DNA of 64,000 bases. It comes from Vairimorpha necatrix. Taxonomy: Eukaryota. The notes beneath the pieces are model-generated. The model saw nothing but the letters and a program-made list of their open reading frames with translations, searched no databases and was not told the DNA's origin. The stretch is taken from assembly GCA_036630325.1 (NCBI GenBank), contig CP142734.1:186001-250000 (forward strand), in the 5' to 3' direction. The position numbers were made by a program, and so were the translations under genes. This document shows, piece by piece, positions 1,542 to 24,918 of this stretch (within the stretch, counting starts at the first letter, position 1; every line of letters starts with the position of its first letter).

Positions 1542-2780
1542 ATGCTAAAAAAAATTATTGTTTCTTCTTTTTGGAAATAGCAAAATGATTTTACTAATAA
1601 AAAATGGGCTGGATTCTGTTTGTGATGGGTATATAGTAATATCTAATGAAAATATATACAAATTATATTTTTTCTTGAATAGTCCGGAGTCAGAAAAAAG
1701 AGTATTATTTAAAGATAAATATAAGGGCAAAGATTTTTTTTCATATGATTATCTCTTAGAAAAGGTAGATACCATTTATCACAAACAAATAAGAACTCTT
1801 GGTACTGCTATTAAAAATACAAAGTTGAGAGAGAAATTTTGCAATAGCGTTCTATAATATAAATTCCATTTTGATTTTCAAACTAACAAAAAGTTTTGTT
1901 TTAAAGTTACCATTAATAAAGAAAAAATAAATACGCTGTCGATTTATCGTACACAAGTAATTGATTTTAACAATAAAAATTTAAGTATGATGCTGGTTTT
2001 AAATAAAATGAAAGGTTATGAATAAATACTTCTAATACAGAATTAGATGCAAAACATAAGAATGAAATATTAAGTATCAACACATATAATGATAATACAA
2101 TAAAAAATAAAGGAAATAACATAGTATACGTAAAAAAAGAGGAATTCAATAATAGTGCACTTAAACCGAAAAAATAAATCATAGATTTTATTTCTTTCCC
2201 TATGATATAAATCATAAAATTACTGGACAGAATAGTACTTTTAAAATTCTTAAAAACGAAGGTTTACTTAAAAACATAAAAAAAATGAAGAATTGAATAG
2301 TCAAGTTAAGCAGCCCAAGGAGCTTGATATTTTAAAAATAATTAAAACAGCCGATATTAATAATAATGATAAAACTAATAACTTCAATGATTTGAATAAT
2401 GAAATGTTTGAACAAAGATTAGTCAGATAAATAATCCTGTTGCAATAAAGAAAAATATATTTAATAATTTAAAAGCATCATTACGAAATGGCCATAAAAT
2501 TTTTAATAAAAACAATATCAACAACAATGAAATCAATAAAGAAAAATCTGATCAAAGCATCAAGGAAGATGATAATTTAAATAAATTTATTATGAATACC
2601 AAATCGAAAGATTAAAGAATTAAATCTAAGAATCTACCATCATCGAATAAGAAATCTGATGATGATGATAATAACACTCCTTTTTGTAGTTTGATTCGTT
2701 ATGTTCTTTATGTTGTCACGTTTTTGGGAATTGGTATCTTAACAGGTTTTCACTGGGACGATATTATTAATAAATATTAA
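1542..2780 (+). pseudogene. Disrupted member of the local secreted/membrane protein family ('CD-x-Y-I-G' family)
   Basis: ATG at 1542 is one base out of frame (A8 run) with ORF 1558-1857. That ORF carries VCDGYIVIS and LEKVDTIYHKQIRTLGTAIKNTKLREKFCNSVL, which align with CDLYIG and L..V...DH..IRKL...NFINS..YY of the intact paralogs. Many stops follow, then an N/K-rich linker and a hydrophobic tail (LIRYVLYVVTFLGIGILTGF) ending at TAA 2778-2780. Confidence 0.75.
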
Positions 2781-3465
2781 TTATCTAGAGCTAATTATTA
2801 ATGTTGCAAATTATTGATAAATCAAATAATAATCATGTTTTTTTTAAAATGATTTATCAAGTCAAAACCATTAATTAAGCTATTAAATACATATAATTTA
2901 AAATCCTATCAAATTTATTAATGAATTTATAATTATTACATTCAAGAGGTACAATGATTTTCTGATGTTATGAAACACAAGTCTGATGTTAATGTCGAGT
3001 ACAGATCTTATATGATCCAAAAATTATATGATGATAAGAAAGTCTCCTTCGTAATTTATTATATTTCAAATTATATTTAAAAGGGGGATATAATATTCTA
3101 TACCTAAAAAATTTAAAAAGAAATCATGACTATAAGATTATGAAGAAAGAACAAACATTATTCTTATGAGATCTATCCTTCGATTTTTATATCTAGCAGT
3201 TCTATCGAATTGACCATTTTAAAAATAAAAAGCATTAAAAGCAGCATTTCTATAGATATTAAACTTGTAATTATTACTTGTCTTGACTTAAATTAATTAA
3301 GGTCATAATATTTTATATGGTATAGTTGATTGTATCAAAAACGCACCTATCATGGTTATATTAATAATATAGAATTCGTTAAAATAGCCAATAAGAAAAA
3401 AATGCAAAAATTTCGAAGACCAAAAAAATATTTAAAATCTCTGTTAACATTAGGAAAACTGAAAC

Positions 3466-3800
3466 TGTAGCATAAATGTCAATTCTGGCTGCTCGGTGTT
3501 TCTAAATAGAGTTAATTGTTTTCCGTTCATTTTATATTCGTAGAAGGGATGAAAGCTTGCCCTATTATGTTTTCAATTTAATTAGTGTCAAATGTATCAT
3601 TTGTTGAATGATGCTAGACTTTTATGTAGCTTTTTTATATTTTGACATTACAAACTAGAACCCATACTTTTTGTTTTCTTCCTTTGTTTGTTGATGAAGA
3701 TGCAATTGACTACGTCAATGGCTGGCCGCATTGATGCATGACAGCCGGAAAGTTCGAGAGCCTTGTTTTCTTACAGATACAGTAGGAATGTTGTGCGACA
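3466..3800. mobile_element. Solo-LTR-like element (335 bp)
   Basis: Termini tgtagca...tgcgaca; flanks gaaac/gaaaa (5-bp TSD, 1 mismatch). Shares ctggctgctcggtgt.tctaaat, gaaggg.tgaaa and tgacagccg blocks with the TSD-bounded insertion at 45643-46003. Confidence 0.75.
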
Positions 3801-6800
3801 GAAAAAAAAATTAATAATAAATTTTTACAAAGACAAAATAAAACTATAACAAACATAATCTTAAAAATCTAAAAAATTTTTTGGTTTTTCGATTTAGTTT
3901 CCTTTACTTAAAATAAAATGAAATAGGATAAAAAGTCTAATAATTTCACATTCATAGACTGATTATAGAAAAAATTGTATTCTTTTATATGTTTTTGTAC
4001 CATATAAAATTTTTAAAGGAAAATCAAAGATTTATAATATTAATAATGAATTCTAAATAGTAAATACACCAAACGCAGAATATAAACTACTCTTAATTTC
4101 TTTGTAAATGTCAAGTATTGGACAATGTTTTGAGTACCTTATCTATCTTCAATAGTCATTTACTTATTTTTGATTCTTGGAAACTTCAAAACACAAAAAG
4201 CTCTTTATTTTTTTCTCGGATATATCCATTTCAACGACTATCATTCATTTATACTAAGATTTTAATAGATTTGGATTTAATTTGGTTTATTTAAATATAT
4301 TTTAAAGCTATTTTTGAACATTACTACTTAAATTATGGTTTAATATATAAACAACTTATGGTAGCATGTATTGAGTATGATATTAGCATAAATGTATAGT
4401 AAAAATCCTGTTAGTAAAAAGCTTTGATACGAATAAAAATTATATTTATATATTCGCATATGTATATCGCAACCAAATTTTTTTATGTTCTACCGTATCT
4501 TCGCACTTTAAATACATTTTATTGTTTATTTTTACAATCTTTGTTCTTATTATTTCCATCTCTTCTATGTATAACATTTATATCTGATGAAGTTTCATAA
4601 ATTTAAACTATATAACCTTCGAATCTAGATTAGATTTTGTTTTGCAAATTTTTCTAATTTTAGTAATCAAATTAGTTTTTGTATTTCCTTCTACATCATC
4701 ATCATCAATCGTAAAGTTTTCATTTCTTTTAACTTGATCGAGGTACTCTCTAAAGTTTATTAATGCTTATATAAATCTAATTTTGCACTTATTTAAAAAT
4801 TTTATATGTTTTATTTCAGCATATATTAAATCTTAAATGACATCTCAAAATTCTTAATGAGATATCTCATTATGTGGTTGAGAAGATGGTTTTTTTTGCA
4901 AATAAATAGGAATGCTAGATTTTCGCCCAGGATATTACGAAAATCTTTTGACGAAACAAAAGAGATATTATTTAAGAAATACTTTAGGCCATGTACAACA
5001 AAGACTATACCTTTACGAACGCAAAATGGTTTGAGGTTTGTTCAACAAATTCTTTTTAAAACTTATGATCTAAATTAATTTCAAGCCGCAATGACTTTAT
5101 TCAAGAATATAAGCAATATTTGAAATTTAAAAAAAAATATTTTATAAATTTAAGGTAACTTAGGGAGAAAAAAAATTAATACTAACATTGAAGAACTAAT
5201 TGGTACCGTTTACTGCATTTATCCAACATAAAAAATGTATTTTTTGACACCTATTAGATAAGAAGATGTGCCTTTTACATTTTACATGAGAGGTAAAAGC
5301 TATGGCTCGAAAAAAAATAACATAGCCATAAGTGACAATGGAAACATGTTTTTTTAATTAAATTTCGATCTGTACCTAAAAACAGGAATTCACATTGTAA
5401 AGAATTGACGCCGAATTAAAAGCCTTGGTTGTTTGAGTCTAAAACAAGATTTATTTATAGACATAACGATATGGTACAATGCACACATAAGTTGATACAT
5501 TTTTCTAAAAAGTTGTAAAGCAAAATATCAAGAGATAGTTCATGAGGATGTGTTTATACAATCGTTTATGCTTAATGATGCCAATGCAAAGAATATAAGT
5601 AAAAAATAGTCACTACTTTGATATGTTTAAAAAGAATAAAAAAATGATTAATATTTTTATCTAAGTTCTGATTACGTTTTTCAGGATATAGAAAAAATGA
5701 GAATAAACTAAGAATCTCGTTTTAACAAGAGGTCTTGAGATTATTTTTGTATATGCTTTTCTTTTAATTTGTAGAGTTACAAAACATCGCGTCAGGTACA
5801 AAAAGCACTTGGCATTTCCTAAAACACTAGTTCTTGAATTAAAATCGAATAAACCATGACAACTCCAGATTAATGTTTAGATTTGAAAAAAGAAGAATCG
5901 ACTGTAATAAACTTGCTGAGAAAAATACTCCAAATATATTACAAAACCAAATTTTTAAGACAATTTTGATAGTTCATAAATTTTAAAATCTATTGTTTTT
6001 TTTTTAAGTATTATTTTCATTTTTTTTAAAAATTTCGTAAATAATGTACTTTGATTTCATAATATTAAAATCATAACCAGAGCTTACTGTTTTTGACTTA
6101 TTTTAATTATTTATAATGTTATTCTGTTTTATGTCTTATAAAAAATAAATTTAATCATTTTTCCGTTCAAATGCATTTTGTGTGTAACTTAGTAATTCTT
6201 AAGTTCAAAAAATCGCAATAGCAAGATTAAAACCTATTATTCTAGTATCTATCTTATAAACATTTTAAATTGGTCTTATTATAAATGTTTTCTCTCATCA
6301 TTTCATATAAATCTTCATTATTTTTTATGATTTCTTTAATCAAAAGACACATTATTATAAATATAAAATAAAATCATGATGAAGATGTTTTAAACAATCG
6401 TAGTTAATAAAGACATTGTTCGTTACTTTTTTTTCTCAAAGCTTTCATAATTTTCAAATTTAAAGTAGATCAAAAATAATAATTAAAAATTAATGGCTAA
6501 AGTAAAAAATGTATTATTTTTTCATAAATGACGTTTATTTGCCAAAAAGATAGTCATAAATTATGTAAACTTAACTACATTTATCCCGAAATATTTAATT
6601 AAACGCTATTTTAATTGAAATATGATAACTACACAAATGGTACTATGAATATTTCATATAATCATTATATGTGCAACCTTTAAAACAAGTTAATAGTTAT
6701 TTATTATGATTTAAACATAGAGAGTGTAAATTATATGCTCACATTGCCTTTTCAGACAATTTAAGCATATATTTTTTTTGATTAAAGTTTCATGTCATTA

Positions 6801-6847
6801 TTTCATTAATATTAATTCTCTATAAATATCGAATTTTATCGAACCCC

Positions 6848-7688
6848 ATGTTTTGGCAAATATTGACTTGTTTAAACTTTAAATATTGTACTGATACGTT
6901 TCTTTTTTTGAATTATCATGATAGAGAGGGATCTCTTTGCGATCTTTATATCGGTGCTTTAGAGGAAGATACTGACACTAAGTTAAATTCAGTGTTTCTA
7001 TCAACAGAATATGAATGGTATTTGAGAGCTTTTGTGAGTGGTTGCAGGTTCGAAGATGGATTATTTCATATAAGAAATAACTGTATTCACTTACAAAGGG
7101 TAGAAAAGGAAGATCATGAAAGTATTAGAAAATTGCCGTTTATTGTTGAAAATAAGAATCTTTTTAAAAATTTTATCGCGTGTAAAGAATATTACAAGTG
7201 TAAGATTGAAGTAGAGGACGAAACGGAATGTTTTTTTTTTAAAGTCAGTCTAAATAAAACGGACGATTCTCTTACTTGGTGGTTTTCGACATTAATGCCC
7301 TTTGAACTGAATAATATGTATGCTGATGTTAAATTTTCTACCCCTAAAGTTAGTGTGCTGAAAAATCGTCGTAAAGAAGATGTCTATAATTCAATTATAG
7401 AGTTTACTTATTTGTTTTTAGAATAAGGTATTGAAATAAATGAGACATCAGATACGGAGGCTAAACAAATTGCTACAAATGGGGGTAGTTCGTCCAACAT
7501 TGTTTCCAAAGAAGAAAATAAAGACGAAAAAGAAAAAACTAAATCTTCTACTTATGTTTCAGAAAAGCCACAATGAAGAAGGACCTGATAAAGCAGAATT
7601 GAAAAGAATTGTAGAGAATGCTTTGTCGGGACTATTAACTCATGTTTCAATATCTACTGGCGAACATGTCGACAATGACAATAAATAA
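6848..7688 (+). pseudogene. Family member, damaged duplicate of 22745-23584
   Basis: CCCC-ATG start; 192 aa open, then TAA at 7424-7426 where the paralog has AAA, and a +1 shift near 7565. Same C-terminus (HVSISTGEHVDNDNK). Could still make a 192-aa N-domain-only protein. Confidence 0.85.
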
Positions 7689-7883
7689 TTGTTCTTTTGG
7701 GTTTTTTTCTTTTTATGTATTTAACTTGAATTTACCCTGAAATCAGTGTTACTAAAAAATTTTTCAACATGAAAAATTATAAATTTACTATAATTGCCCC
7801 AAATTAAACTTCATTTTTTATTAATTTCTTTTAAGAAAAAAATTTAAACGAAAGAGAATAAAAATTTGACAATGATTATAACA

Positions 7884-7932
7884 TGTTATATATTCTTATA
7901 TTTCTGAACCCCAATTATGATAAATAAATACA
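7884..7932 (+). repeat. 5' LTR of Gypsy 1 (49 bp)
   Basis: tgttatatattcttatatttctgaaccccaattatgataaataaataca; 47/49 identical to 16586-16634; directly followed by tgggggcg. Confidence 0.92.
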
Positions 7933-8318
7933 TGGGGGCGATGCCGAATCGTGAGCTAACAAATGTTGGCTGTGGTCAAGAGGCCAGAAGGTTATTAGAA
8001 GAGTTTAAGAGGATTGTTTATGGATTAGTATTGTCTGATTATGATTTTGAAAAAATGTAAAGAAGGAGATTTTTGATCTTGGAACTGATGAGTTGAAAGA
8101 ATTTATGGTTAAGAATATTAAGATTAGAGATCATTGGAAAGTTATGGAAACCAAATTAGAGGAATTGGTTAAAGTACAGGAGGAAAAGGATATGAGATTA
8201 CGGATGATCGAGGAGGTCACAAAGATGGTGGCAGAGGAGATTAGAAATATTAGTAGAGAGGAAAGAATATTTGAGAAGAGAAGAACAATATGATGTTATA
8301 ATTGTTCAAGAATGGGAC
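7932..8318 (+). pseudogene. gag: Gypsy 1 gag, 5' part
   Basis: ATG 7932 MGAMPNRELTNVGCGQEARRLLEEF..., frameshift near 8055 into ORF 8093-8293, then *CYNCSRMG, the first half of a CX2CX4HX4C knuckle that resumes at 13933 as (Q)KSQMC. Confidence 0.75.
7933..7946 (+). promoter_or_regulatory. Primer-binding site, probably tRNA-Pro
   Basis: TGGGGGCGATGCCG abuts the LTR end. TGGGGGC is the complement of the 3' end of eukaryotic tRNA-Pro (recalled, not searched). Confidence 0.65.
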
Positions 8319-8323
8319 CAAAA

Positions 8324-9910
8324 TGGGGTTCACCAAACGCAAAAAAAGGAGGAAGAAACTTGCGAGATTGAGGCCGACTTATCGACCTCTGGAGCACAAG
8401 AAAGTGTTAATTCACTAGTATTGGAAGGCTACAAACCAGAATGTGAAGTTAGAAGCTTCCGCAAGGCTGGTATTCAGACAGACCAAGAATTGATAAAATT
8501 CTGGTCACGAACAGAGACTTTATTTAACAGAATAAAGATAGAAGAAGGCAAAAATACTAACCAAAGGTATTGTGGGAGAGCTGGGCTGATGGCTAGCCTC
8601 GCTTCCTATTGTAAGAGCTCACATGGAGTGACAAGTATTCATCAGGAGTACTTAGATGCCATCTGTGAAGAGCTCAATGAACAGAGATTCAAGCTTAAAA
8701 ACTTGAAGAAGCAGCACGAGATTGAGATTTCCGTAATGAGAAACCAACTCAACACACAAATTGATGCCCCAAAGGCTTCAAATGAAAGATTAGAGCAGAG
8801 AATTGACATGATTCTCACTGCAAAAAAAAAAGAGTGTGAAGAACCAATCACAAAAAAAGCTGATCGTACTGATCAAAAAAAGGAAAAGGAATAGTTTGGT
8901 GTCTTCTCTAAAGCTCAAGATAAAGAGCAAATAAAGGTTACGGGTGAAAGGATCCCATCATCCAATACCATTAATGTGTATTTACGACAGGTAAGCGCTG
9001 CCGTAAAAGGAAACAGGAAATTGTTGAAGAAAAATATTCTTCTAACAGAAAAGACGGAGAATGACTGGACAATTATCTTAAAAATTGTGATATGAAACCA
9101 AAGGTTTCAAAAAAAGCTGATGCCTCAAAAACATCAAAAACAGCAGATGCCTATAGGTTTGCCCCATTCCTAGAAGGTATAAAAAAGAACTTCAACTGTG
9201 ATACGAAACAGTTGAAAGTACCCGCTTCAAGTTCTAAAACTTGTAAAAAAATGCTGAAAGATGATTTGTTACTGTCATCTATAAAAGGTTGTGCGAAGTC
9301 GAAATCTATGACTGAGCGCAAATCCAAGATGAAGAAAACATCTTTACCAAAGGCACCTTCTTCTCACATTACGAGGAAGAAACAAACGAATTGGATAGAT
9401 AAACTATCCAGAGAAGAGTTGCTAGACCTAGCAATAAACGGAAAGAGGCTCAAAGACTGCAAATACAAAATTGTGGTCGCTCATGGTTTCCTCCGAGGGG
9501 AACACATTATCAGGAAGACCTGGGCCAAATTAATGGGCATAGAGGAAAAGAACATTCCCCTGGTAAAAGATATTGAAGGCGAGGGCAGAATTTTTCTCAT
9601 TAGAGATGAGTTCTGCTTTCAAGCTGCAGAAGCTCTTGAGAACGCTTCAGAAAATGTAAGAGTATTAGTTGCCGAAAACGAAGTAGACAATTATATCCAT
9701 AGGAACAGATCAGCTTTGACAAAAATATTCTTCGATCTTCGTCAAAATTGGAGGAAGTATGTGCCTGTCGATAAAGCAATAAAAGTTATAAAAAACGGTC
9801 TATCTGACAAGCCTACAGTAAGCCATGAAGAGTTCTTTCTATCCGAGTTAAACTTTGAATATCTCGGGAAAGACAGGAAAGTTGATAGTAAACATCACAA
9901 TAAACAGTGA
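8324..9910 (+). pseudogene. LINE ORF1-like region (coiled-coil and basic segments)
   Basis: ORFs 8271-8894 (heptad-rich ICEELNEQRFKLKNLKKQHEIEISVMRNQLN) and 9092-9910 lie inside the TSDs, upstream of ORF2. ATG at 8324 is 5 nt inside the element. No named domain recognised. Confidence 0.6.
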
Positions 9911-10087
9911 TAAAAATGCTATTATTAAAAGATTTTTATTAAATAATATATATTTTAATAAAAAACAAGTTATACGGCTTATTAGCTGTACCAAAATTAA
10001 TTGTCTACCCAACAATCACCAAAAGTTAGTAACTTTACTAATAAAAATAATGGATGTAAACTGAGATTTAAATCTCATGTCTATATT

Positions 10088-13000
10088 ATGGTAAAAGCTA
10101 GAATGCTGAGAACAAGCATTCAAAAGGGGTTGTGTCTAGTTAAAACAATGGCCAACCATATCAATAGAGAAGAACTCCGACAACAGTTAGACAGAGTGTC
10201 AACGGGATTATCGTACTCCCTTATCTATACCAGAAAGTATCGCAGAAAAAATGCTAACTTTACCTTCTGCGTAGTCAGAAGGTCAAGAAAAAAGGAAATT
10301 TCTGAAGCCATGGATATACTTGGCCTAGAAATATATAAAAAAATTCTAACTCGTGATAGGGTGGAGAATAAAAGAAGATGCAAGTCCATAGAGAAGGCCA
10401 AGCTCTATAGTCTTAACATCAACCATTTCTACGGAAAGAATGAGGACTTGGAAATCCTCCTTAAAGTAGAAAAGCCTTAGTCTTGTGTCTTCAAGAAACT
10501 TGGAAGAAATCCTTAGGTTCTACGAGACTAGAAAAGTATATGGTGGTGAAGACACCAGCCATAGGAAAGAATCGGCCGGGTCTAATGACTCTAGTCAGAA
10601 AAGACGGGGCAGTAAGATTTTCCAAAAAGGGGGATGACGACAATATTCTACAAACTGTCGTTGAATTCAAAACTAGTACGGGATGGACAAAGGTCTTAAT
10701 AATCAATGTTTACGTTCCACAAGAGAGAGAGTTAAAGGCCGAAACTCTAAGTAAAGTTTTAACCTTCTTAGTATTGAGAAAGATAAAAGAAACTACAAGG
10801 AGATTGTAGTGATGGGGGATATGAATACTAGTGATTCTTCCCTCAAAACGAAGCTTGCTATCGCAGGATTAAGCCCTGCAATAAACTATAACAGATTACC
10901 AGGGACAAGAATCCTGAGTGATGGACAAGTCTCTAAAAGACGTATTGATACGATATTTAGGGTCTTAATTCAGGACAACGAGAAAGTAACAATCTCTCGA
11001 AGATGGACGGTAAGTGATCATCTCTTGCTGAAGAGAATGATATCTCTTCCTTCTCCAGTGAGAGAACGGTCATTTGCCTACAATAGGAAGAAACTTGAGC
11101 ATCCAGGAATGGAAGCTAAGCTTTCAAGAAAGTTGAATGAAAAAAACATTCACACTAGTTGAACTCTCTAGAGTTTTTAAAGACGTTTGTATATCCTCCA
11201 AGATATACAGTAAAGTGGGGACATTCAAAGGACTGCCCATCAGATGGAGACACGTAAATGTCTTTAAAAATTTAGATATGCTACTAAGCGTATGCTAACG
11301 AATAGGTCCGTAACGTCTGTGCATAGTTACATGTTACTGAAGGATAAGATTGGGGCAACAAAGATAAAAGTTCGGAAAGATCGAGCCAAACTTTGGGCCT
11401 TCAAGGGCATTGAGCTCTATAAAAGTAACAGATCCAGAGACTTCTGGAAATGGTTGAAAAGTTCTTCTAACGTCACTGTTGAATTAGACAATGTTTGCTT
11501 GAAAGATGTATCAGGCATGGCTCATAACGAGCATAAAAAGAAGTTAGAGATAGCCAATGACTTTTATGCTAATCTAGCTAACTCAATTTCAGACGTTGAA
11601 AATGTCTATCAAAAAAATATCGAAAGGGATACTCCAGAGAACATCACTATGGAGGAATTATTGAGTTCCACTTTTAACTGTGGCTTTAACAAGGCAGCTG
11701 GACCGGATGAGATTCCAACTGAGCTATACAAGATACTACTTAAACCTAGCTTAGTAGATAAAAAGCTACCTCTGTTCCTTGTGAACGAGTTCAACAGAAT
11801 ACTAACAGGAGACAGTTCTCCTGTTAGCTGGAGTGCTGCTGACATGATTTGCCTCCATAAAAAAGGAGATGTGTCAGATCTCAACAACTATAGAGGAATT
11901 GCGCTAATTAACACAATAAGCAAAATTTACTTAAAAATAGTAAACGACAGACTTACACAGTTTGTTGAAGAAAAGAACATTCTTTCTTCTTTCCAAGCCG
12001 GATTTAGAACAGGAGAAGAATGTATGAATCAGATTGCAACCTTGCTGAAGGTGGTTAAAAGAAGAGAATTTCGAAGTCAACAAACATTTCTATGTTTTAT
12101 TGACTTTGAAAAAGCTTACAACAATGTTAGCCATGAGCTACTATTTAATAAGCTAGAAAGGTATAGTATTCCAAGATATCTTATAAACACATTAAAAGAT
12201 ATCTATGGAAATACTAAGATGAGAATCCGTATAAACGGAGACACAAGTAGTGGATATCTTTACAAAAAAGGTGAGAGACAGGGGTGCCCCTGTTCTCCTA
12301 CGCTGTTAATCTATTCATAAATGATATTTTTGACGGCATGACAGGATTGAGCGTTCCCCGCTCAAATATAAGCCTGCCCGGACTGATGTTTGCAGATGAC
12401 ATCGTAGTTCTAGGCAATTCTCTTGCTGATTTGAAACACAAAGTATGTCAAGTCAGCAGATGTTTAGTTGAGAATCGTATGAAGATCATTTGTGACAAAA
12501 ATGGTATCTTAGTTTGGGATGCCAGTAATATATCCGAGTCTTTAGATGTAGCTATCAGGACTGACTTTGAAAAATCGGTGAAGTCTCCGAATACAGGTAT
12601 TTGGGTGTTCTTTTTAAAGATCTACTTTAAAAGAACACTTAGTAAGATATGGAGCCTTCAGAAGCAAAAAAGCTTTAGAAGTTTGAAAATAAACCTTAAA
12701 TAACGGAATTAATATAGCTTTTAAAGGTATATTAATAAAAAATGTGCTATTTCCCTCACTAATGTACGGAAGTGAATTATGGGGGATGTCTAGTATAAGG
12801 TCTGGTGGGATCAATAGAATCCTAAGAAAAGCGATCCGAATAATATTTCGAACAAAAATAGTGCCATTAGATAGGATAATGGACGAACTCTGTATGAATA
12901 GAGTATACATACAGGCGCCCTAAGTAGATTTAGGGCATTAAGGAAGTGGAAACACAATAAAACCATTATCTCGGAATTTATTAACCAACCTCCGAGTGAA

Positions 13001-13612
13001 AGGAAAACCACGTAAGGTTCGAAGACTAGACGTTATTGTAAGAGATATATCGGGAAGGATTATGAAAGCATTGTCTACGTTATAGGCAATAACAAAATTT
13101 TAGAGGTACTTAAGGCAAGGGGTTCCTACAACACTACTTTAGGTGCTCTAGTAGCAGATAAGTATGGAATCTGTGACTCGCAGATTAAGTACATATTATC
13201 AAAATTAAGCAACAGGCAGATCAGGAATTACACCAGGCTTCAGTGTAATATAGTCAGATGGTCTTCTGCTTTGGCTAATGCCAACAGAATCCCTCTTTTT
13301 TATAGGACTCATTGTTTCCTTTGTGAGGGAGAACGAGAAGACCTTGAACACTTCTTGTTAGACTGTCCGACGCTCTCTTACACAAGATCTCTATATGAGA
13401 ATAAAATACCTGAGTTGAGATGTTCAACTCAAACAAAAGAGGAGCTAGTTAAGATGTTATTGGTAACATCAATGGCATTAAAGCTTGTTTTGATATAAGG
13501 AAGTCTCTACTTGTAAGAGTAGAGTTCTTAGACAAGATGATTGTAAAACGATATATCGTTATACGAGAAAAGGAAAGGCTTGTAAGCCAGAACAGATCTA
13601 GAGAAATCTAGA
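10088..13612 (+). pseudogene. LINE ORF2: APE endonuclease - reverse transcriptase - CCHC zinc finger (multiple stops and frameshifts)
   Basis: APE motifs SLNIN, CLQETW, INVYVP, MGDMN, RIDTI, SDH; RT motifs AAGPDEIP, NYRGIAL, QAGFR, FIDFEKAY, GERQGCPCSP, MFADD; C-terminal CFLC..EDLEHFLLDCP. End points approximate. Confidence 0.93.
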
Positions 13613-13642
13613 AGAAAAAAAAACACACTTTTACTTGGGGGA

Positions 13643-13853
13643 GCTATGGCAAGCTGCTGGTGCCGTAGCATTTACGTTGAACTAGTTAGGTTCTTAACTG
13701 ACGAGTAGGTCAGACGTGTTATTCTATTAGAACCCTGCTGAACGCAGGTCACAGACAGGAATGTTTGTGGTTCTAATCCTAAGGGATATTTTTTCTCCTA
13801 CAACCAAGGCCTTTATGGCATGCTGGTGTGTATCACAAGTTATTGGCTGTTGA
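13643..13853 (+). other. Structured LINE 3' UTR
   Basis: GC-enriched relative to the flanks; visible stems gctatggca/tgccgtagc, agttagg/cttaact, attagaac/gttctaat enclosing cctgc/gcagg and cacagaca-GGAA-tgtttgtg. Confidence 0.65.
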
Positions 13854-13932
13854 AGTTTTTATTTGCTGGGTGGCTTTTCTTTAATAAAAATAAAAGTTTT
13901 TTTTTTTTTTTTTTTTAGTTTAAGAATGGGAC

Positions 13933-16568
13933 AAAAGAGTCAGATGTGTTATTTTAGATATAGAAATGTTAAGAATAAAGACGAATGTGAGAAAGTTAAA
14001 GATGAAGGTAGCAGTAGCTGTGATGAAAGGACTTATAGGAACACATGGGATGTTAAAGACAAAAGAAACAAGAATGGAAGACAAGAAATAAAAGATGTTA
14101 TGATGAGGTAGAAAAGAACGGTCTAACATTAGAAGACACGAGAAAGAGGTTTAGGATTGTTATAGACAACAAAGAAGAGAAAATAAGATACTGTAAAATT
14201 GAAAAATTCAAAATCATGACTGAAAAAGGCAAGAAAGTTGTAAGGAAAGGTCAGCAGGTGCCACAAGCGCATAAAGAAGAGCTGAGAAAATATATTCAGA
14301 AGTTAGAGACAAGAAATGTCATAAGAAGATCGACGTCGGAATGGAGAAATCCGATTAAAGCTTTAGTTAAGCCAGATGGAAGTATAAGACTGGTTTGCAA
14401 TTCTCATGGCATTAAATGATTTAGTGAAGAAAGACCCTTATGAATTAGTGAACATTAGAGATATCATAAGGAACACGCAAGGGTCGAAGTTTTTCAGTGT
14501 TATAGACCTTAAGGAGGTTTTTTATGGAATCGAAAAAGAAGAGCAAGACAAGCATAAGACTGCATTTGAGTATGATAAGATAGTATATGAGTGGAATAGT
14601 ATGGTCATGGGGTTTATAAAACTCGCCTCAGATCATGCAGAGAATTATGAATAAGATTTTTGAAAAACATTTGGGTGGTAAAATAGAAGTATACATGGAT
14701 ATAATAGTGATTCATGCGAAGACTATAAAAGAACATGAAAACTATTTGTAGAAGCGATGGAATTGTTAGAACGGAATAATATGCGGATAAATTCAAGGAA
14801 AATTCAGTATTGCCAAAAGGAAGTCAAGTTATTGGGAGTTACATTAAACGGAGATGATATGATGCCGTCTGAAATCAAGAAAAACGAAGCACTAGAGTTT
14901 CCAACGCCGCAGAATGTGTCTGACCTAAGAAGATTTTTAGAACTGAGTGGATGGTTTCGAGGATTTATTAAGAATTATGCGGAGAAGACATTATAAATGA
15001 CTGAAAGCTTGAAAGGTAAAAGTAAAGTGCTGAATTGGACTGATCACTTGAATTAAGATTCGAAAATATGAAGGAAACGTTAAGAAGTATGAGTAAGTTG
15101 GAAATTGTAAACTATGACAAGGAATTTTTATTAAGAACTGACGCGAGCAATATAGGAATGGGCGCAGTACTTATGCAGAAGAATGATAAAGAGGAGTGGA
15201 TGCCAGTACAATGGGCATCGAAGAAATTCACCCCCTACGTAAACAAGATATGGTATAAGTGAAAAGGAAATGTATGCCATATATTGGGGTATAAAGAATT
15301 TTGAGTATGAGTTAAGAACGAAAATTTAAAGTAGAAACGGATCACATAGCATTGGCGGAAATAAGAAGAAAGCCGTGTTTTAATAATAATAGAATTAATC
15401 GATGGATGAAAAGATCCAAGAATTTGACTTTGAAATAGATTACAGGAAACCAGAACATATGGTCGTGGCGGATGCTTTGAGTAGGATACACGAGGAGGTT
15501 GATATAAGAAAAGAAATGATAAAAAAAAGAAGTGAGCGTCAAATTGAAGGTAAATGGTTGAAGCACGTCGAGAAAATAGACGGTAAAGAATACTGGAATT
15601 TTGATTCGGGGAGGAAAGCATTGATTCCTAAAATAAAAGAAAGAGATGAGCTTATGAGACGTTATCATGAAGAGCATGGTCACAGAGATCTAGGAAGTAT
15701 GTATTATGTTATGAAGTTTAATTATTATTGGCCAGGAATAAAAGAAGATATAGTGAAAATGATAAAAAGATGCGAAGAGTGTCAAATTTACAATAGGAAA
15801 AAGTCTGGAGGATGTGATTTTGTTGCTACAAGCAGGTATTTAGAAAAAGTAGCGTTAGATTTAATTGATTTTAAAGATAAGGGCAAATATGTATTAGTTG
15901 CGATAGATTAACATACGAGGATAGCGTGGGGATGTGTATTATACGATAAGAAGAGATCCTCTGTAGCCCAGTTTATTGAGAACTTATGTAGAAATGGCAG
16001 GAGGCCGAAGGAAATAATAACGGATAATTGGAAGGAATTTGATAATGTTGACTTTAAGAATTTGTGTAGAAAATTGGATATTACCCATAATAAGGTGAGT
16101 TTCGAGCCTCATAGAAGCAATGGTAGTTTGAAAGAGTTATAGGAACGCTTAGAGAGCTAATATTGAAAATGAGTAAAGAGACGGCGAGTTTTAAAGACAT
16201 AGTGATGGAAAGCTTTAAAATTTATAATAATAGTTACCATGAAGGTATAAGAAGTACTCCCGATGAAGCGGTAAAAGACAATACGGGAAAAGTGATGATA
16301 TTAAATGGACCAGAAGGAGACTACAGTAAAAGATTTGTTAGAAGATATAGAGAGCGGTTTATTGAAGGACAACGAGTATGATAGCTAAGTAAGAAAACAT
16401 CAAAGGATGTAATAAATATGGAAAGGGAAGGTTTTTAGACGAAAGTATTATAATGGTGATATGCCCTGGGACTCGTATGTTGTGAAGCTATATAATGGGC
16501 GATATGTTAAAAATAGACATTATGACTTGAAAAATCTGCTTGGGGTTAATGGTGATGTAGGAGACTAA
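13933..16568 (+). pseudogene. pol: Gypsy 1 gag tail and pol (RT, RNase H, integrase)
   Basis: RT: SEWRNPI..KPDGSIRLV, FSVIDLKE, KTAF, YMD; RNase H: LRTDASNIGMGAVL, VVADALSR; integrase: HEEHGH..YYWPG..CEECQ, VALDL, ITDN.KEF. No D[ST]G protease motif seen. Confidence 0.93.
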
Positions 16569-16585
16569 CCGCCTTGGAGGGGGGA

Positions 16586-16634
16586 TGTTATATATTCTTA
16601 TATTTTTGATCCCCAATTATGATAAATAAATACA
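16586..16634 (+). repeat. 3' LTR of Gypsy 1 (49 bp)
   Basis: Immediately preceded by PPT ggagggggga; TG...CA; matches 7884-7932 with 2 substitutions. Confidence 0.92.
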
Positions 16635-16988
16635 TCTAATAATTTTAAAGCATCATTACGAAATGGCCATGAAATTACCAATAAAAACAATATCAACAAC
16701 AATGAAATCAATAAATAAAAATCTGATCAAAGCATCAAGGAAGATGATAATTTAAATAAATTTATTATGAATACTAAATCGAAAGATAAAAGAATTAAAT
16801 CTAAGAATCTACCATCATCGAATAAGAAATCTGATGATGATGATAATAACACTCCTTTTTGTAGTTTGATTCGTTTATTTTTTTATGTTGTCACGTTTTT
16901 TGGAAACGGTATCTTATTAGGTTTTCACTGGGACGATATTATAAAAAAAAATAATTATTTAAAGCTAATTATTAATGTTGCAAATTAA
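16635..16988 (+). pseudogene. 3' fragment of the 1542-2780 family gene created by the duplication breakpoint
   Basis: ORF 16767-16988 (MNTKSKDKRIKSKNLPSSNKKSDDDDNNTPFCSLIRLFFYVVTFFGNGILLGFHWDD) duplicates 2592-2780. Confidence 0.8.
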
Positions 16989-17595
16989 TGATAAATCAAA
17001 TAATAATCATGTTTTTTTTAAAATGATTTATCAAGTAAATCCATTAATTAAGCTATTAAATACATATAATTTAAAATACTATCTAATTTATTAATGAATT
17101 TATAATTATTACATTCAAGAGTTTTTGATTTCCTGATGTTATGAAACACAAGTCTGATGTTATATCGAGTACAGATCTTATATAATTCAAAATTTATTTG
17201 ATGATATGAAAGACTCCTTTGTAATTTATTATATTTCAAATTATATTTAAAAGGGGGATATTTTATTCTATACCTAAAAAATTTAAAAAAAATCATGACT
17301 ATAAGATTATGAATAAAGAACAAACATTATTCTTATGAGATCTATCCTTCGATTTTTATAGCAGCAGTTCTAGCGAATTAGACATTTTAAAAATAAAAAG
17401 CATTAAAAGCTGCATTTTCATAGATATTAAATATGTAATAATTACTTGTCTCGACTTAATTCATTAAGGTGGTAATATTTTATACGGTATAGTTTACGTT
17501 CCTTTAAACGTACCTATCATGTTTATATTAACTAATAAAGAATTCGTTAAAATAGCCAATAAGAAAAAAATGCAAAAATATCGAAGACCAAAAAA

Positions 17596-18452
17596 GGAGC
17601 ATTTTCACTTTATCCCCCCCTTACCAATATAAATTAAGAATTTTTAAAAAATATCCCTTTTTTTCGAAATTTGAAGCGGAAAAAATGTGAAGGAGCAAAA
17701 GTCAAAAAAATAAAGTTGTAATAAAATAGCATATTTACCAAAAATAAAACAATTGTTTTTTCGTTTTTTTTCAATTTTTTAAAAATTTCCTTCTTCCACT
17801 TATTGATCAAGATTTATCTTTATTGTACATTGCAATGTATAACAACGAAAATCTTTATATAAACAATATTATATAAGGTTCATTTGCTTTATAAATGAAT
17901 ATTTTTTAAGAATTAAAGAATTTTCCAAACATGTAATATTTTACTTTTGGATCTAAAATATAACATTTCTTATTAAATTGATATTAAATACACATCAATA
18001 ATTCTTTAAAGAGCATAAAGATAACATTATTTTTTTTCTGTTTGTCTAGAAAAACCAATGAAAACCTAAAAAACAAGACTAATAAATATACTACCAAACT
18101 AAGAATAACCAAACCTAAATCTGTTTTAAACAACATAAACTGTGTATAAACATGTTTTTCTTGAGCAAAAATTAAATGTAATGACAAAAGAAAGCAATAG
18201 GTTAAAACATATTTTTACAAATTTAGACTTCTATTTAACTCATAGTTTATTAAAAAACATTATCAAATTGGTTTAAATAATATATTTTTTATAAACTATG
18301 TTCAAACTAGATATTTCTAAGACCATTTTTTTCTTATGTAAATTTTCCTTTGTTTCTTTCCGCTTTGGACGCTTTGACTTTTAAAAAACAGGGCTAAAAA
18401 TAAAAAATTTTGTATTTATATTGGTAAGGGGGGGATAAAGTAAAAATTAGCC
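17596..18452 (+). mobile_element. Non-autonomous DNA transposon (MITE), Merlin-like, copy 1
   Basis: ~40-bp TIRs ggagcattttcactttatcccccccttaccaatataaat / atttatattggtaagggggggataaagtaaaaattagcc; GG...CC ends; 8-bp target sites; absent from duplication copy A. Confidence 0.88.
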
Positions 18453-19174
18453 CTCAAAACATTGTCCAATACTTTACATTTACAAAGAAATTAAGAGTAG
18501 TTTATATTCTGCGTTTGGTGTATTTGCTATTTAGAATTCACTATTAATATTATAAATCTTTGATTTTTTCTGTGTAAATTTTATATGGTACAAAAACATA
18601 TAAAAGAATGCAATTTTTACTATAATAGTCTATAGATGTAGAATTATTAGACTTTTTTTCCTATATCATTTTATTTTAGTAAAGGAAACTAAATCGAAAA
18701 ACCAAAAAAATTTTAAAATTTTTTAGATTTTTAAGATTAAGTTTATTATAGTTTTCTTTTGTCTTTGTAAAAATTTATTATTAATTTTTTTTTCTGTCGC
18801 ACAACATTCTTACTGTATCTGTAAGAAAACAAGGCTCTCGAACTTTTCGGCTGTCATGCATCAATGCGGCCAGCCATTGACGTAGTCAATTGCATATTCA
18901 TCAACGAACAAAGGAAGAAAAACATTAAGTGCGGGTTCTAGTTTGTAATGTCAAAATATAAAAAAGCTGTATAAAAATCTAGCATCTCTTCAACAGATGA
19001 TACATTTGACACTAATTAAATTGAAAACATTGTAGGGCAAGCTTTCATCCCTTCTCATATATAAAATATACGAAAAACAATTAACTCTTTTTAGAAACAC
19101 CGAGCAGCCAGAATTGACATTTATGCTAAGTTTTATTTTTTCTAATGTTAACAGAGATTTTAAATATTTTTCGG
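18453..19174 (-). other. Inverted segment (reverse complement of 3420-4134)
   Basis: 18453 ctcaaaacattgtccaatac is the reverse complement of 4115-4134, and tctaatgttaacagagattttaaatatttttcgg (to 19174) is the near reverse complement of 3420-3453. Confidence 0.93.
18795..19129. mobile_element. Solo-LTR-like element, duplicated and inverted copy of 3466-3800
   Basis: tgtcgcacaacattc...gaattgacatttatgcta is the reverse complement of 3466-3800. Confidence 0.75.
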
Positions 19175-20026
19175 GGCTAATTTTCACTTTATCCCCTCCT
19201 TACCAATATAAATACAGAATTTTTTATTTTTAGCCCTGTTTTTTAAAAGTCGAAGCGTCCAGAGCGGAAAGGAACAGAGAAAAATTTACATAAGTGAAAA
19301 AAAGGGCCTAGAAATATCTAATATGAACATAGTTTATGAAAAATATAATATTTAAACCAATTTAATAATGTTTTCTAATAAACTATGAGTTAAATAGAAG
19401 TCTAAATTTGTAAAAATATGTTTTAACTTATTGCTTTCTTTTGTCATTACATTTAACTTTTGCTAAAGATAAACATGTTTATACACAGTTTATAATGTTT
19501 AAAACAGATTCTAGGTTTGGTTATTCTTAGTTTGGTTGTATATTTATTAGTCTTGTTTTTTAGGTTTTTATTGGTTTTTCTAGACAAACAAAGTAAAAAT
19601 AATGTTATCTTTATGCTCTTTGAAGAATTATTGAATCGTATAGAATGTCAATTTATTAATATATGTTATATTTTAGATCTAAAAGTAAAATATTATATGT
19701 TTGGAAAATTCTTTAATTCTTTAAAAATATTCATTTATAACAGCAAATGGACCTTATATAATATTGTTTATATAGAGATTATCGTTGTTATACATTGCAA
19801 TGTACAATAAAGATAAATCTTGATCAATAAGTGGAAGAAGGAAATTTTTAAAAAAAAACGAAAAAACAATTGTTTTATTTTTGGTAAATATGCTATTTTA
19901 TTACAACTTTATTTTTTTGACTTTTGCTCCTTCACATTTTTTCAGCTCCGAATTTCGAAAAAAGGGATATTTTTTAAAAATTCTTAATTTATATTGGTAA
20001 GGGGGGGGATAAAGTGAAAATGCTCC
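19175..20026 (-). mobile_element. Merlin-like MITE, copy 2 (inverted relative to copy 1)
   Basis: Reverse complement of 17596-18452 over its whole length; ends ggctaatttt...aaaatgctcc. Confidence 0.88.
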
Positions 20027-22744
20027 GTTTTGAGTACCTTATAAATCTTCAATATGCATTTACTTTTTTTTGATTCTTGGAAACTTTAAAACACAAAAAG
20101 CTCTTTATTTTTTTAACGGATTCGTCCATTTCAACGACTATCATTTATTTTTACTTTGATTTTTAGATTTGGATTTAATTTGATTTATTTAAATATATTT
20201 TTTAAGTCTTTTTGAATATACTAACAAGTATTTCGCTTTAATATATACACAACCTATGGTAGCATGTATTGAGCATGATATTTGCATAAATGTATGGTAA
20301 AAATCCTGCTAGTAAAAAGCTTTGCTACGAATAAAAATTATATTTATATATTCGCATATATATATCGCAACCCAATTTTTTTATGTTCTACCGTATCTCC
20401 GCACTTTAAATACATTTTTATGTTAATTTTTACGATCTTTATTATCATATATTTCCATCTCTTCTATGTACAACATTTATATCTGATGAAGTTTCATAAA
20501 TTTAAACTATATAACCTTCGAATCTAGATTAGATTTTGTTTTGCAAATTTATCTAATTATAGTAATCAAATTAGTTTTGGTATTTCCTTCTACATCATCA
20601 TCATCAATCGTAAGGTTTTCATTTCTTTTAACTTGATCGAGGTACTCTCTAAAGTTTATTAATGTTTATAAAATCTAATTTTGCACTTATATAAAAATCT
20701 TATATGTTTTATTTCAGCATATATTAAATCTTAAATGACATCTCAAAATTCTTAATGAGATATCTCATTATGTGGTTGAGAAGATGGTTTTTTTTGCAAA
20801 TAAATAGGAATGCTAGATTTTTGCCCAGGATATTACGAAAATTTTTAGACGAAACAAAAGAGATATTATATATGGAGAAATACTTTAGGCCATGTACAAC
20901 AAAGACTATACCTTTACGAACGCAAATTGGTTAGAGGTTTGTTCATCGAATTATTTTTAAAACTTATGATCTAAAATATTTTCAAGCCGTAATGACTTTA
21001 TTCAAGAATATAAGCAATATCTGAAATTTAATAAAAAATATTTTATAAATTTAAGGTAACTTAGGGAGAAAAAAAAAAAATTAATACTAACATTGAAGAA
21101 CTAATTGGTACCGTTTACTGCATTTATCAACATAAAAAATTTAATTTTTGACAATTATTAGATAAGAAGATGTGCCTTTTGAATTTTAAATGAGAGGTAA
21201 AAGCTATGGCTCAAAAAAAATAACATAGCCATAAGTGACAATAAAAACATGTTTTTTTGATTAAATTTCGATCTGTTTCTAAAAACAGGAATTCATATTT
21301 TAAAGAAAAAACGGCGAATGAATAGCCTTGGTTGTTTGAGTCTAAAACATCTTTTATTTATAGACATAACGATATGGTACAATGCACACATAAGTTGATA
21401 CATTTTTCTAAAAAGTTGTAAAGCAAAATATCAAGAGATAGTTCATGAGGATGTGTTTATACAATTCTTTATGCTTAATGCTGCCAATGCAAAGAATATA
21501 AGTAAAAAATAGTAATTGCGATGATATGTTTAAAAAGAATAAAAAAATGATTAAAATTTTTATCTAAGTTCTGATTACGTTTTTCAGAAAAAACGAGAAT
21601 AAACTAAGAATCTCATTTTAACAAGAGGTCTAGAGATTATTTTTGTATATCTTTCTCTTTTAATTTGTAGAGTTACAAAACATCGCGTCAGGTACAGAAA
21701 GCACTTGGCATTTCCTAAAACACTGGCTCTTGGATTTAAATCGAATAAAACCTTGACGACTTCAGATTAATGTTTAGATTTGAAAAAAGAAGAATCGACT
21801 ATAATAAACACGCTGAGAAAAATACTCCAAATATATTACAAAACCAAATTTTTAAGACAATTTTGATAGTTCATAAATTTTAAAATCTATTGTTTTTTTT
21901 AAGTATTATTTTCATTTTTTTTAAAAATTTCGTAAATAATGTACTTTGATTTCATAATATTAAAATCATAACCAGAGCTATCTGTTTTCGACTTATTTTA
22001 ACTATTTATAATGTTATTCTGTTTTATATCTTATAAAAAATAAAACTAATCATTTTTCCGTTCAAAAGCATTTTGTGTGTAACTTAGTTATTCTTTAGTT
22101 CAAAAAAGCGCAATAACAAGATTAAAACCTATTATTCTAGTATCTATCTTATGAACACTATAAAATTTGTTGATTATAAATGTTTTCTCTCATCTTTCCA
22201 TATATTTCTTCATTATTTCCTCAATGATTTCTTTTATCAAAGACACATTTTTATAAATTTTAAATAAAATCTTGATGTAGATGTTTTAATCAATCGTAGT
22301 TAATACAAGACATTGTTCGTTACTTTTAATTCTCAAAGCTTTCATAATTTTCAAATTTAAAGTAGATCAAAATTGATAATTAAAAATTTATGGCCGAAAG
22401 TAAAAAATGTATTATTTTTTCATAAATGACGTTTATTTGCTAAAAAGATAGTCATAAATTATGTAAACTTAACTACATTTATCTCGAAATATTTAATTAA
22501 ACGCTATTTTAATTGAAATATGATAACTACACAGATGTTACTATGAATATTTCATATAATCATTATATGTGCAACCTTTAAAACAAGTTAATAGTTATTT
22601 ATTATGATTTAAACATAGAGAGTGTAAAATGAATACTCACATTGCCTTTTCAAACATTTAATCAAATGTTTTTATTGATTAAAGTTTTATGTCATTAATT
22701 CATTAATATTAATTCTCTATAAATATTGAATTTTATTGAACCCC

Positions 22745-23584
22745 ATGTTTTGGCAAATATTGACTTGTTTAAACTTTGGATATTCTACTGATACGTTTCT
22801 TTTTTTGAATTATCATGATAGAGAGGGATCTCTTTGCGATCTTTATATCGGTGCTTTAGAGGAAGAAACTGACACTATGTTAAATTCAGTGTTTCTATCA
22901 ACAGAATATGAATGGTATTGGAGAGCTTTTCTTGAGGGTTGCAGGTTCGAAGATGGATTATTCCATATGAGAGATAACTGTATTTACTTACAGAGGATAG
23001 AAAAAGAAGATCATGAAAGTATTAGAAAATTACCGCCAATTGTTGAAAATAAGAATCTTTTTAAAAAGTTTATTGCGTGTAAAGAATATTACAAGTGTAA
23101 GATTGAAGTCGAGGCAGAAAAGGTATTTCTTTTTTATAAAGTCAGTCTAAATAAAACGGAAGATTCTCTAACTTGGTGGTTTTCGACATTAATGCGGTTT
23201 GAACTGAATAATATGTATGCTGATGTTGAATTCCCTTTCCCTAAAGTTCTTAATCTGAAAAATCGTCGTGGAGAAGATGTCTATAATTCAATTATGGAGT
23301 TTACTTATTTGTTTTTAGAAAAAAGTATTGAAATAAATGAGACATCAGATACGGAGGCTAAACAAATTGCTACAAATGAGGGTAGTTCGTCCAACACTGT
23401 TTCCAAAGAAGAAAATAAAGGCGAAAAAGAAAAAACTAAATCTTCTACTTATGTTTCAGAAATTCGCAATGAAGAAGGACCTGATAAAGCAGAATTGTTT
23501 AGAATTTTAGGGAATGCTTTGTCAAGACTATTTACTCATGTTTCAATATCTACTGGCGAACATGTCGACAATGACAATAAATAA
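22745..23584 (+). CDS. Predicted secreted protein of the local family (279 aa), function unknown
   Basis: CCCC-ATG at 22745 (the track's TTG at 22736 is unlikely); hydrophobic N-terminus; family motifs CDLYIG, DHESIRKL, EYYKCK, LTWWFS; acidic/charged C-terminal region with no TM segment. Confidence 0.85.
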   Translation: MFWQILTCLNFGYSTDTFLFLNYHDREGSLCDLYIGALEEETDTMLNSVFLSTEYEWYWRAFLEGCRFEDGLFHMRDNCIYLQRIEKEDHESIRKLPPIVENKNLFKKFIACKEYYKCKIEVEAEKVFLFYKVSLNKTEDSLTWWFSTLMRFELNNMYADVEFPFPKVLNLKNRRGEDVYNSIMEFTYLFLEKSIEINETSDTEAKQIATNEGSSSNTVSKEENKGEKEKTKSSTYVSEIRNEEGPDKAELFRILGNALSRLFTHVSISTGEHVDNDNK

Positions 23585-24918
23585 TTGATCTTTTAGGTTT
23601 TTTTCTTTTTATGTATTTAACTTGAATTTACCTTGAAATCAGTGTTACTAAAAAATTTTTCAACATTAAAAATTTAAAGTTTACTAAAATTGGTCAAAAT
23701 TAAATTTTTAATTTTTATATTTATTTCTTTAAAGAAAAAAATTTAAACGTAAGAGAATAAAAATTTGACAATGATTATAACATCTTTTAGTAAAAAAATA
23801 CAAAATAAATAATTTTGGAACTTTTTTTACTTCATATATGATATTATTAATAATGAACCAAATATAAAAAACTTGCGTTTTTCGATATTCATTGCAAAAA
23901 AATCGAAGATTTTCTATGTTATATGTTAAGCTCTTATATATCTATAACTTGTATTTACTTTTTAATTAATAAGTAAAACATTGAATATGTTTTTGATTTG
24001 AATAAATGGCTAAAATATGTAGTAAATGTCAACATGTTTATTGTTAATTTCCCTCCCTCTTTTAAAAATGTTTTTAATTCTTTTGTTTTAAATCAAATCT
24101 GTCCATTTGTGTGAATATGATTGGTCAGTATTTGATAGGCTACGCAGTATATACTTCATGATTGAAATAATAAGAATTATAGCTTTGTGTTAAATAAAAA
24201 AAATCCAACCACATGCTTATTTGTTATGTAGTACAAAAATGATTAAGAGTTAAAAGCTCTTTTTTAAATATTGCAAGCTTACATTACCGTGTGTACAAAT
24301 AAAAACTTTAAACGTATTTTTTTTATCTCTTCGATCTAATAATATGGTCATATTTTAATAAATTGCCTTTTTTACAAAAAAAGCTTTCAAAGAAGTTCTA
24401 GAAAAAGTTTTAAAATCAATAAATGTTCTAACATTTTTATTACAATGTAAAATATATGGCTCAAATCAGAAGTTGAAGTGTTTGAAAACTAGTTTATATG
24501 TAATTTTTAATTTGCAATTATAAATTATTGAAGGACGTTTTGCAAAAGTAAAATATCGAATAAATATAAGAGTAGTTACTTAAGATCATATTTTAGTAGA
24601 CTATTACATAATTAAAACAAAATATACCTTACGGTCTTGACACATTTTATTGAAAAAAATCTATATTACACATTTACAGTGATAAGAAAAACATGGTTAT
24701 GGAATACATTTAGTTCTCGATAAAGATTAATTATACATAATTAATACAGAGGAAGACATGTTAAAAAATTGATATTCTTAATGGTCTAAAAAACTTGCAA
24801 TAATTAAATAGCATACAAAGAATAAATTATGTGGGAATATTTACTAATATAAATGCAAAATATGTCGAGAATTTTCAGATAAATATTCAGATATAAAAAT
24901 CTTTTTTATTATATTTAA

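Follow-up and report, generated by a model that had tools for sequence, protein, structure and literature searches.

A microsporidian Ty3/Gypsy family with 48-49-bp terminal repeats and a single frame without a recognizable protease

The window analyzed here is a stretch of 64,000 nucleotides from Vairimorpha necatrix (GenBank assembly GCA_036630325.1, contig CP142734.1, positions 186,001 to 250,000 of the forward strand), and its positions 7884 to 16634 hold a dead copy of a Ty3/Gypsy retrotransposon with long terminal repeats (LTRs) of 49 bp. An earlier, sequence-only reading had described the whole interval as a Gypsy element. The ends it gave are correct and the size is not: a nested long interspersed nuclear element (LINE) accounts for 5.6 kb of the 8,751-bp span, and the standard element is ~3.14 kb long. 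The direct repeats at 7884-7932 and 16586-16634 are 49 bp each, are identical at 47 of 49 positions and have TG...CA ends. The primer-binding site (PBS), TGGGGGCG, lies directly 3' of the 5' LTR and the polypurine tract (PPT), GGAGGGGGGA, directly 5' of the 3' LTR. No third copy of the 49-mer is present in the 64-kb window at up to 16 mismatches. The copy has no target-site duplication (TSD), as its flanks read TAACA and TCTAA, and its coding part after the LINE (13918..16568) contains many stops and frameshifts, with the family stop codon at 16566-16568. The parts of the copy are arranged as follows.

7884..7932, plus strand: 5' LTR, 49 bp, TG...CA, with CCCC at 7909-7912, the polyprotein start codon at 7917-7919 and AATAAA at 7923-7928
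7933..7946, plus strand: PBS for the host tRNA-Pro(AGG), doubling as polyprotein codons
7917..8318, plus strand: mini-gag remnant, ~125 residues predicted to be helical, up to the zinc knuckle; disrupted in this copy
8319..13917, plus strand: nested, decayed non-LTR (LINE) retroelement of 5.6 kb within the zinc-knuckle codons, with a T-rich 3' end
13918..16568, plus strand: remnant of the zinc-knuckle end, a short charged linker, reverse transcriptase (RT), RNase H and integrase, with no recognizable protease; 95-96% identity to sibling copies (95-97% for the copy as a whole outside the LINE)
16561..16576, plus strand: conserved 16-nt motif preceding the PPT, with 1 change in this copy; a 5-bp hairpin is possible
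16576..16585, plus strand: PPT abutting the 3' LTR
16586..16634, plus strand: 3' LTR, 49 bp, with AATAAA at 16625-16630

A search of the genome with the 49-mer at three or fewer mismatches gave 35 matches, and the reversed control gave none. We fetched 38 matching loci, of which 35 are two-ended and, together with the window copy, form the set of 36 copies compared throughout. The other three, a solo LTR that has a 5-bp TSD and two loci that run past the fetched DNA at one end, were not included. Three of the 36 copies are one triplicated segment and two more have a common flank, so the number of independent insertions is slightly below 36. The triplicated element and its flanks (L085, L087 and L089) are 99-100% identical on two contigs, which is a recent segmental triplication. 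One mosaic copy (L070) has ~90% identity to the window copy at its 5' end and ~73-75% in the integrase region; its LTRs match each other and its TSD is imperfect.

The sequence-only reading had delimited a 49-bp LTR by its TG...CA ends, by the adjoining PBS and PPT and by the end of similarity on both sides, and this description holds at the locus and across the 36 copies. Averaged over pairs of copies, identity reaches 0.93 over the first 10 bases of the LTR and 0.87 over the last 10, and drops to 0.36 and 0.38 in the 30 flanking bases. The 5' LTR measures 46-50 bp in the 36 copies, and an exact 5-bp TSD is found in 19 of them (21 of 1,260 in mismatched pairings), so other copies do have LTRs of about 49 bp with TSDs. 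Element length is 3,095-3,174 bp in 23 of the 36, the remainder carrying insertions or deletions. Both LTRs are identical in six copies, and in young copies they are 48-49 bp long. The PBS makes 14 contiguous matches to tRNA-Pro(AGG) in a sibling copy and 13 of 14 in the window copy, the best match among the 63 tRNA genes of the genome.

Other Gypsy families in the genome have LTRs of 70-350 bp, a point in favour of the 49-mer being a deletion remnant of a longer LTR, as was already considered with the first description. None of the 36 copies has a longer LTR, however, the TSDs adjoin the 49-mer, young copies carry identical 48-49-bp LTRs and relatives in other organisms have LTRs of 39 and 49-50 bp. 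A remnant is thus extremely improbable, and 49 bp is the true LTR length of the family.

An uninterrupted frame is present in one of the 36 copies and encodes 1,014 aa. It begins at LTR position 34 with an ATG that closely follows CCCC, continues across the remaining LTR bases and the PBS and stops 17 nt short of the 3' LTR; the ATG within the LTR is kept in 32 of the 36 copies. Pfam matches in the polyprotein are a weak zinc knuckle (126-140), RVT_1 (281-439), RT_RNaseH (503-633), Integrase_H2C2 (704-757) and rve (776-854), with no protease. The order RT, RNase H, integrase is that of Ty3/Gypsy, and together with the ends and the primer site it supports the original assignment to Gypsy. We are nearly certain of the family as a ~3.14-kb microsporidian Ty3/Gypsy element whose LTRs are 48-49 bp long, with 5-bp TSDs, a PBS for tRNA-Pro and a single protease-less frame of 1,014 aa starting in the 5' LTR, of which the window copy is a dead member. 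The explanation given below as a whole, which covers family identity, the working of the LTR, protein maturation and the origin of the window copy, we consider probable.

Ty3 and other Metaviridae share the order of RT, RNase H and integrase, the TG...CA ends, a tRNA PBS and a PPT. The family differs from them in having no protease, a Gag of ~125 residues, an LTR several times shorter and a start codon inside the LTR. The absence of a protease weakens its standing as a canonical member of the Metaviridae and leaves intact the statement that it works like one. In all 15 domain comparisons between subfamilies pN (nonsynonymous differences) is lower than pS (synonymous differences), and the proteins are thus under selection. 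We considered and rejected the non-autonomous TRIM/SMART class, since the family codes for a 1,014-aa polyprotein under purifying selection. SMART/FRetro129 elements of grasses have 85-bp terminal repeats and still yield solo LTRs (PMC3281118); they are non-coding and non-autonomous, whereas the family encodes RT, RNase H and integrase and has LTRs of roughly half that length.

Several lines of sequence evidence point to the absence of a protease from the polyprotein. All 120 homologues listed are Gypsy-type polyproteins, and the best 48 stand apart; most of the complete ones measure 950-1,050 aa. None of these 48 closest homologues has a D[ST]G-type motif upstream of RT, nor does the query. 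The distance from the zinc knuckle to YxDD is 212-298 aa in the 48 (mostly 220-268) and at least 312 aa in nearly all more distant homologues with a knuckle. Among 43 aligned rows, zf-CCHC matches 34, and the 25 Pfam families listed for these rows include no aspartic protease (52 single-row families are unlisted). Residues 141-221 contain no invariant or nearly invariant column in 25 rows. In a tree of RT-RNase H with 75 rows, 31 rows form one clade with SH-aLRT (approximate likelihood-ratio) support of 100, all without a D[ST]G-type motif. The tree was made by a quick method with no Copia, BEL or retrovirus outgroup, and seven rows outside the clade also lack the motif, some of them partial or known protease carriers, so that the pattern overlooks some real proteases. 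Judged by motif, Pfam match, conserved column and room, an aspartic protease between Gag and RT is absent. This loss, a stranger feature than the short LTR, had gone unnoticed in the sequence-only reading, as had the start codon within the LTR and the motif before the PPT.

To place the family among the other Gypsy elements of the genome, we sampled 20 long-frame integrase loci from at least 150, of which 19 lie outside the clade. These 19 have LTRs of 70-350 bp and are mostly 3.5-4.4 kb long; a protease motif is present in 18, and the first in-frame ATG lies within the 5' LTR in 16. A start codon inside the LTR is therefore a general habit of the Gypsy elements of this genome, and it is the very short LTR and the missing protease that go together. 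In most other Gypsy families (L181-L200) a CCC or GGG motif precedes the frame start within the 5' LTR, and one protease-coding family has 70-bp LTRs.

Sister families within the clade have LTRs of 48, 49 and 38 bp. Of 20 loci checked, six have 38-bp LTRs; elements of this family are 3,064-3,076 bp long and have a short PBS (L207, L221, L224, L225, L230, L231, L233). Another sister family has 49-bp LTRs that end in TA rather than CA, mostly with exact 5-bp TSDs (L222, L226-L229, L232, L234-L238), and carries ATTAAA before CCCC and no AATAAA after the ATG. Metagenome contigs contain four relative loci, one of which has both LTRs and is a 39-bp-LTR element with a TSD; no relative was found in viral contigs.

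Single-polyprotein microsporidian Gypsy groups were described by Parisot et al. in 2014 (PMC4202319). They resemble the family in having one polyprotein, a frame that often begins inside the LTR and a 5-bp TSD, and differ in their mostly 70-350-bp LTRs, lengths of 3.5-4.4 kb and presence of a protease. Likewise, "nearly all" of the Nosema bombycis Nbr elements are reported in PMC2474625 to carry a protease alongside Gag, RT, RNase H and integrase. A supplementary table of PMC4202319 lists Aalg retro L of Anncaliia algerae with a 50-bp LTR, an open reading frame at 32-3049 and a length of 3,127 bp, and this element is like the family in its ~50-bp LTR, its ~3.1-kb length and the frame starting inside the LTR. 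Compared by eye only, it also has the same first 11 LTR bases, CCC then ATG, a zinc knuckle near residues 125-140, a short linker and the same motif before the PPT. It is unlike the family in having AATAAA before CCC and not after the ATG, and a shorter PBS. The main text of PMC4202319 contains no occurrence of "protease" or "retro L" and discusses neither the short LTR nor the missing protease, so a short LTR of this kind had already been printed without comment. A second candidate precedent, Aalg retro S (listed LTR 45 bp), is not counted because its printed ends repeat ~81 bp.

The shortness that the sequence-only reading stressed is thus real and not unique, given the relative with a 50-bp LTR tabulated in 2014 and the 38-bp LTRs in the same genome. 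No LTR lengths are given in the available text of PMC5012567, PMC13174016 and PMC12449221. In the literature searched, which left most subscription journals, Repbase-type libraries and bioRxiv supplements outside its scope, no protease-less or ultra-short-LTR Gypsy clade is described. For Bombyx Mag, an LTR of 77 bp has been given. The clade sets a lower bound of 38-49 bp on a working LTR in elements with an RT and integrase of their own, and shows how far LTR retrotransposons can shrink. Its detection also depends on the tool. The default minimum LTR length of LTRharvest is 100 bp (PMC2253517), and structure-based finders with this minimum cannot call the clade, in spite of the at least 130 sites of its pre-PPT motif in a 15-Mb genome. 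The earlier statement that LTR finders would overlook the family is accurate to this extent, although homology-based tools still see the RT.

This 16-nt motif, located just before the PPT, has 130 exact matches in the genome and none in the control. It recurs, with a shorter loop, in the metagenome element with 39-bp LTRs and was not found in eight loci from outside the clade. The motif could form a hairpin of 5 bp, for which the hardly varying stem gives no support from covariation. It would be the only conserved non-coding signal inside the element and may serve in packaging or plus-strand priming. Pairing of the motif with the primer tRNA, as a second PBS, was tried and rejected, as the tRNA-Pro genes ranked 35, 37 and 38 of 50.

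The 49 bp of the LTR include CCCC at positions 26-29 and AATAAA at positions 40-45, both pointed out in the sequence-only reading. It had linked CCCC to the start motif of host genes and to ultra-short untranslated regions (UTRs), for which there is good precedent: in Encephalitozoon cuniculi, the start codon of most genes directly follows a CCC-like motif, 5' UTRs are shorter than 7 nt and the reading of poly(A) signals is loose (PMC2803860). We propose that the LTR is built like a host gene start, in which positions 1-26 would serve as an AT-rich promoter and CCCC would mark the start. The RNA would begin a few bases before the ATG at position 34, near LTR positions 27-33, and the AATAAA of the 3' LTR would place cleavage at or just past the LTR end. 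R would then extend from the start site to the LTR end, ~16-23 nt, with U5 near zero, and minus-strand strong-stop DNA would be only ~16-23 nt long. Strand transfer would still be allowed, with the flank bases beyond R on the RNA not copied.

In 28 of the 36 3' LTRs, only 4 nt separate the AATAAA from the LTR end. Because poly(A) cleavage generally occurs ~20 nt downstream of the signal (PMC2803860), the LTR would have next to no U5 if this AATAAA is used. That speaks against the U3-R-U5 with a tiny R of the sequence-only reading, in which the RNA would be cleaved inside the LTR to leave a tiny R and a short U5. Such a classical arrangement in miniature finds some support in the R of 10-11 nt reported for Sire elements and mouse mammary tumour virus (PMC3601003), and sister families with the hexamer at LTR positions 20-25 would be cleaved within the LTR. 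In the family itself, however, positions 20-25 do not read as a signal and the only AATAAA is the one so close to the LTR end. We consider the miniature arrangement a tentative alternative, of rather low probability.

Several points weigh against a host-like LTR without U5. The limits of R and U5 and the RNA start are placed from the sequence alone. The position of the hexamer is not fixed, as sister families have AATAAA or ATTAAA at LTR positions 20-25 or 12-17; there it precedes the ATG and may belong to the promoter. The AATAAA of the LTR also encodes residues of the frame, and the hexamer occurs in 193 of the 1,306 49-mers of the window. In combination with CCCC, though, it is rare, at one of the 1,306. 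For the LTR model as a whole, a host-like start with U5 near zero, we put the likelihood slightly above even.

The question raised by the clade is whether maturation by a protease and a U5 region are dispensable, and what deserves testing is the lack of a protease throughout the clade, the pre-PPT motif and the U5 that may have been lost. In the predicted structure, Gag is a small helical bundle with a 50-residue helix, followed by a linker without a confident beta domain. The linker after the zinc knuckle is charged, of low confidence in the model and variable in length among homologues. The helical domain aligns with the Arc C-lobe (Z 6.0, root-mean-square deviation (rmsd) 2.6, 65 aligned) and with the Ty3 capsid N-domain (Z 5.4, rmsd 3.2, 70 aligned), in both cases tied with unrelated helical bundles, and fold searches returned nothing at E <= 0.001 with Foldseek and nothing at Z >= 8 with VIA-align. 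The mini-Gag has room for one capsid lobe at most, and the model makes a single-lobe capsid possible.

Our tentative preference, held with less than even confidence, is that the polyprotein functions in a largely uncut form and assembles by way of the long Gag helix. What weighs against it is that a borrowed protease is at hand: at least 146 matches to retroviral-type proteases above the Pfam cut-off are present in the genome (among 150 scored). The family could thus be a protease parasite, autonomous for RT, RNase H and integrase and not for maturation, its polyprotein cut in trans by the proteases of co-resident Gypsy elements. These matches would provide the supply, and the D[ST]G motif lies in long open frames in 18 of the 19 sampled elements outside the clade. 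Yet the linker between Gag and RT has no conserved residues that could be a cleavage site, co-assembly of the mini-Gag with the unlike, longer Gag regions of protease-bearing families is not obvious, and the protease-less clade is old and spread over several genera. Cutting in trans is accordingly a possibility to which we give a limited weight. The disordered linkers of the polyprotein could instead be cut by a host protease, with which the low confidence, charge and variable length of the linker after the knuckle are consistent; this we find quite unlikely.

The strongest form of the preferred reading, an uncut polyprotein, is that an old and widespread microsporidian clade replicates without any proteolytic maturation, with an uncut Gag-RT-RNase H-integrase, a single-lobe or capsid-less Gag, a U5-less LTR of 38-49 bp, strong-stop DNA of ~20 nt and one small internal hairpin as the sole other cis signal. 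We regard this full combination as rather unlikely. If true, it would represent the smallest possible LTR element able to copy itself, and the need of Metaviridae for a protease would no longer hold as a rule.

The window copy lies precisely where the two units of a duplicated host-gene segment meet; the units are the following.

2460..7883, plus strand: duplication unit 1, host DNA ending exactly at the 5' LTR, with a gene copy at 6848-7426
16635..23782, plus strand: duplication unit 2, starting exactly after the 3' LTR, with a gene copy at 22745-23584

The two units differ by 6.2% substitutions and the segment is present only twice in the genome. The window copy is 4.1% from eight siblings, compared with 2.6% between one sibling and another. 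The divergence of the units fits the decay of the copy itself, so the element inserted at about the time of the duplication. The two LTRs of the window copy carry two variants that segregate family-wide, a pair that favours unequal recombination between two insertions. We lean towards a copy whose halves would derive from two insertions 5.4 kb apart that recombined unequally, by which the host segment would have been duplicated and the TSD lost; the LINE would have inserted into the zinc knuckle of the copy. Two findings count against this recombination: the copy has only nine diagnostic sites with no clean switch point, and another copy with a mixed LTR pair has a matching TSD. A second mixed-LTR copy was considered as a proven recombinant and dropped, as its shared flank is a dispersed repeat.

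The exact duplication boundaries, and an element decay and duplication divergence of one age, would also fit a single aberrant integration, in which the element ends were attached to two sites 5.4 kb from each other and the duplication is a giant target duplication, or a tandem pair produced by an assembly join of two haplotypes. A single integration should give identical LTRs, though, and both differences are family-wide variants, while a haplotype join is not expected to stop exactly at both LTR ends. We therefore treat these alternatives jointly as conceivable, with a probability clearly below even.

The nested LINE is flanked by a 15-bp target duplication with one mismatch (8304-8318 and 13918-13932) and matches RVT_1 at 11268-12317 (E 2.8e-22). 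A contig of sequencing run X1 joins 8314 to 13929 without the LINE; contigs of this run cover repeats and hardly any unique flanks, and are uninformative on junctions. The LINE family is dispersed in the genome and often 5'-truncated. Instead of poly(A), the 3' end of its sense strand has runs rich in T or short T-rich repeats (also in L202-L206).

The duplicated host gene (6848-7426 and 22745-23584) encodes 192 aa in one copy and 279 aa in the other. Unit 2 contains two dispersed repeats of 0.87 kb in inverted orientation (17591-18459 and 19168-20031), which have terminal inverted repeats of ~78 bp, resemble miniature inverted-repeat transposable elements and occur in more than 30 near full-length copies. 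The 0.7-kb host segment between them is inverted relative to its paralogue at 3424-4134. Elsewhere in the window, an integrase-like frame of 295 aa lies on the minus strand at 25647-26534 without an RT nearby, possibly a transposon of the Ginger/Gin type. Further repeat pairs are found at 40253-40836 and 50058-50646 (78%, inverted) and at 39124-39722 and 58225-58838 (70%, direct).

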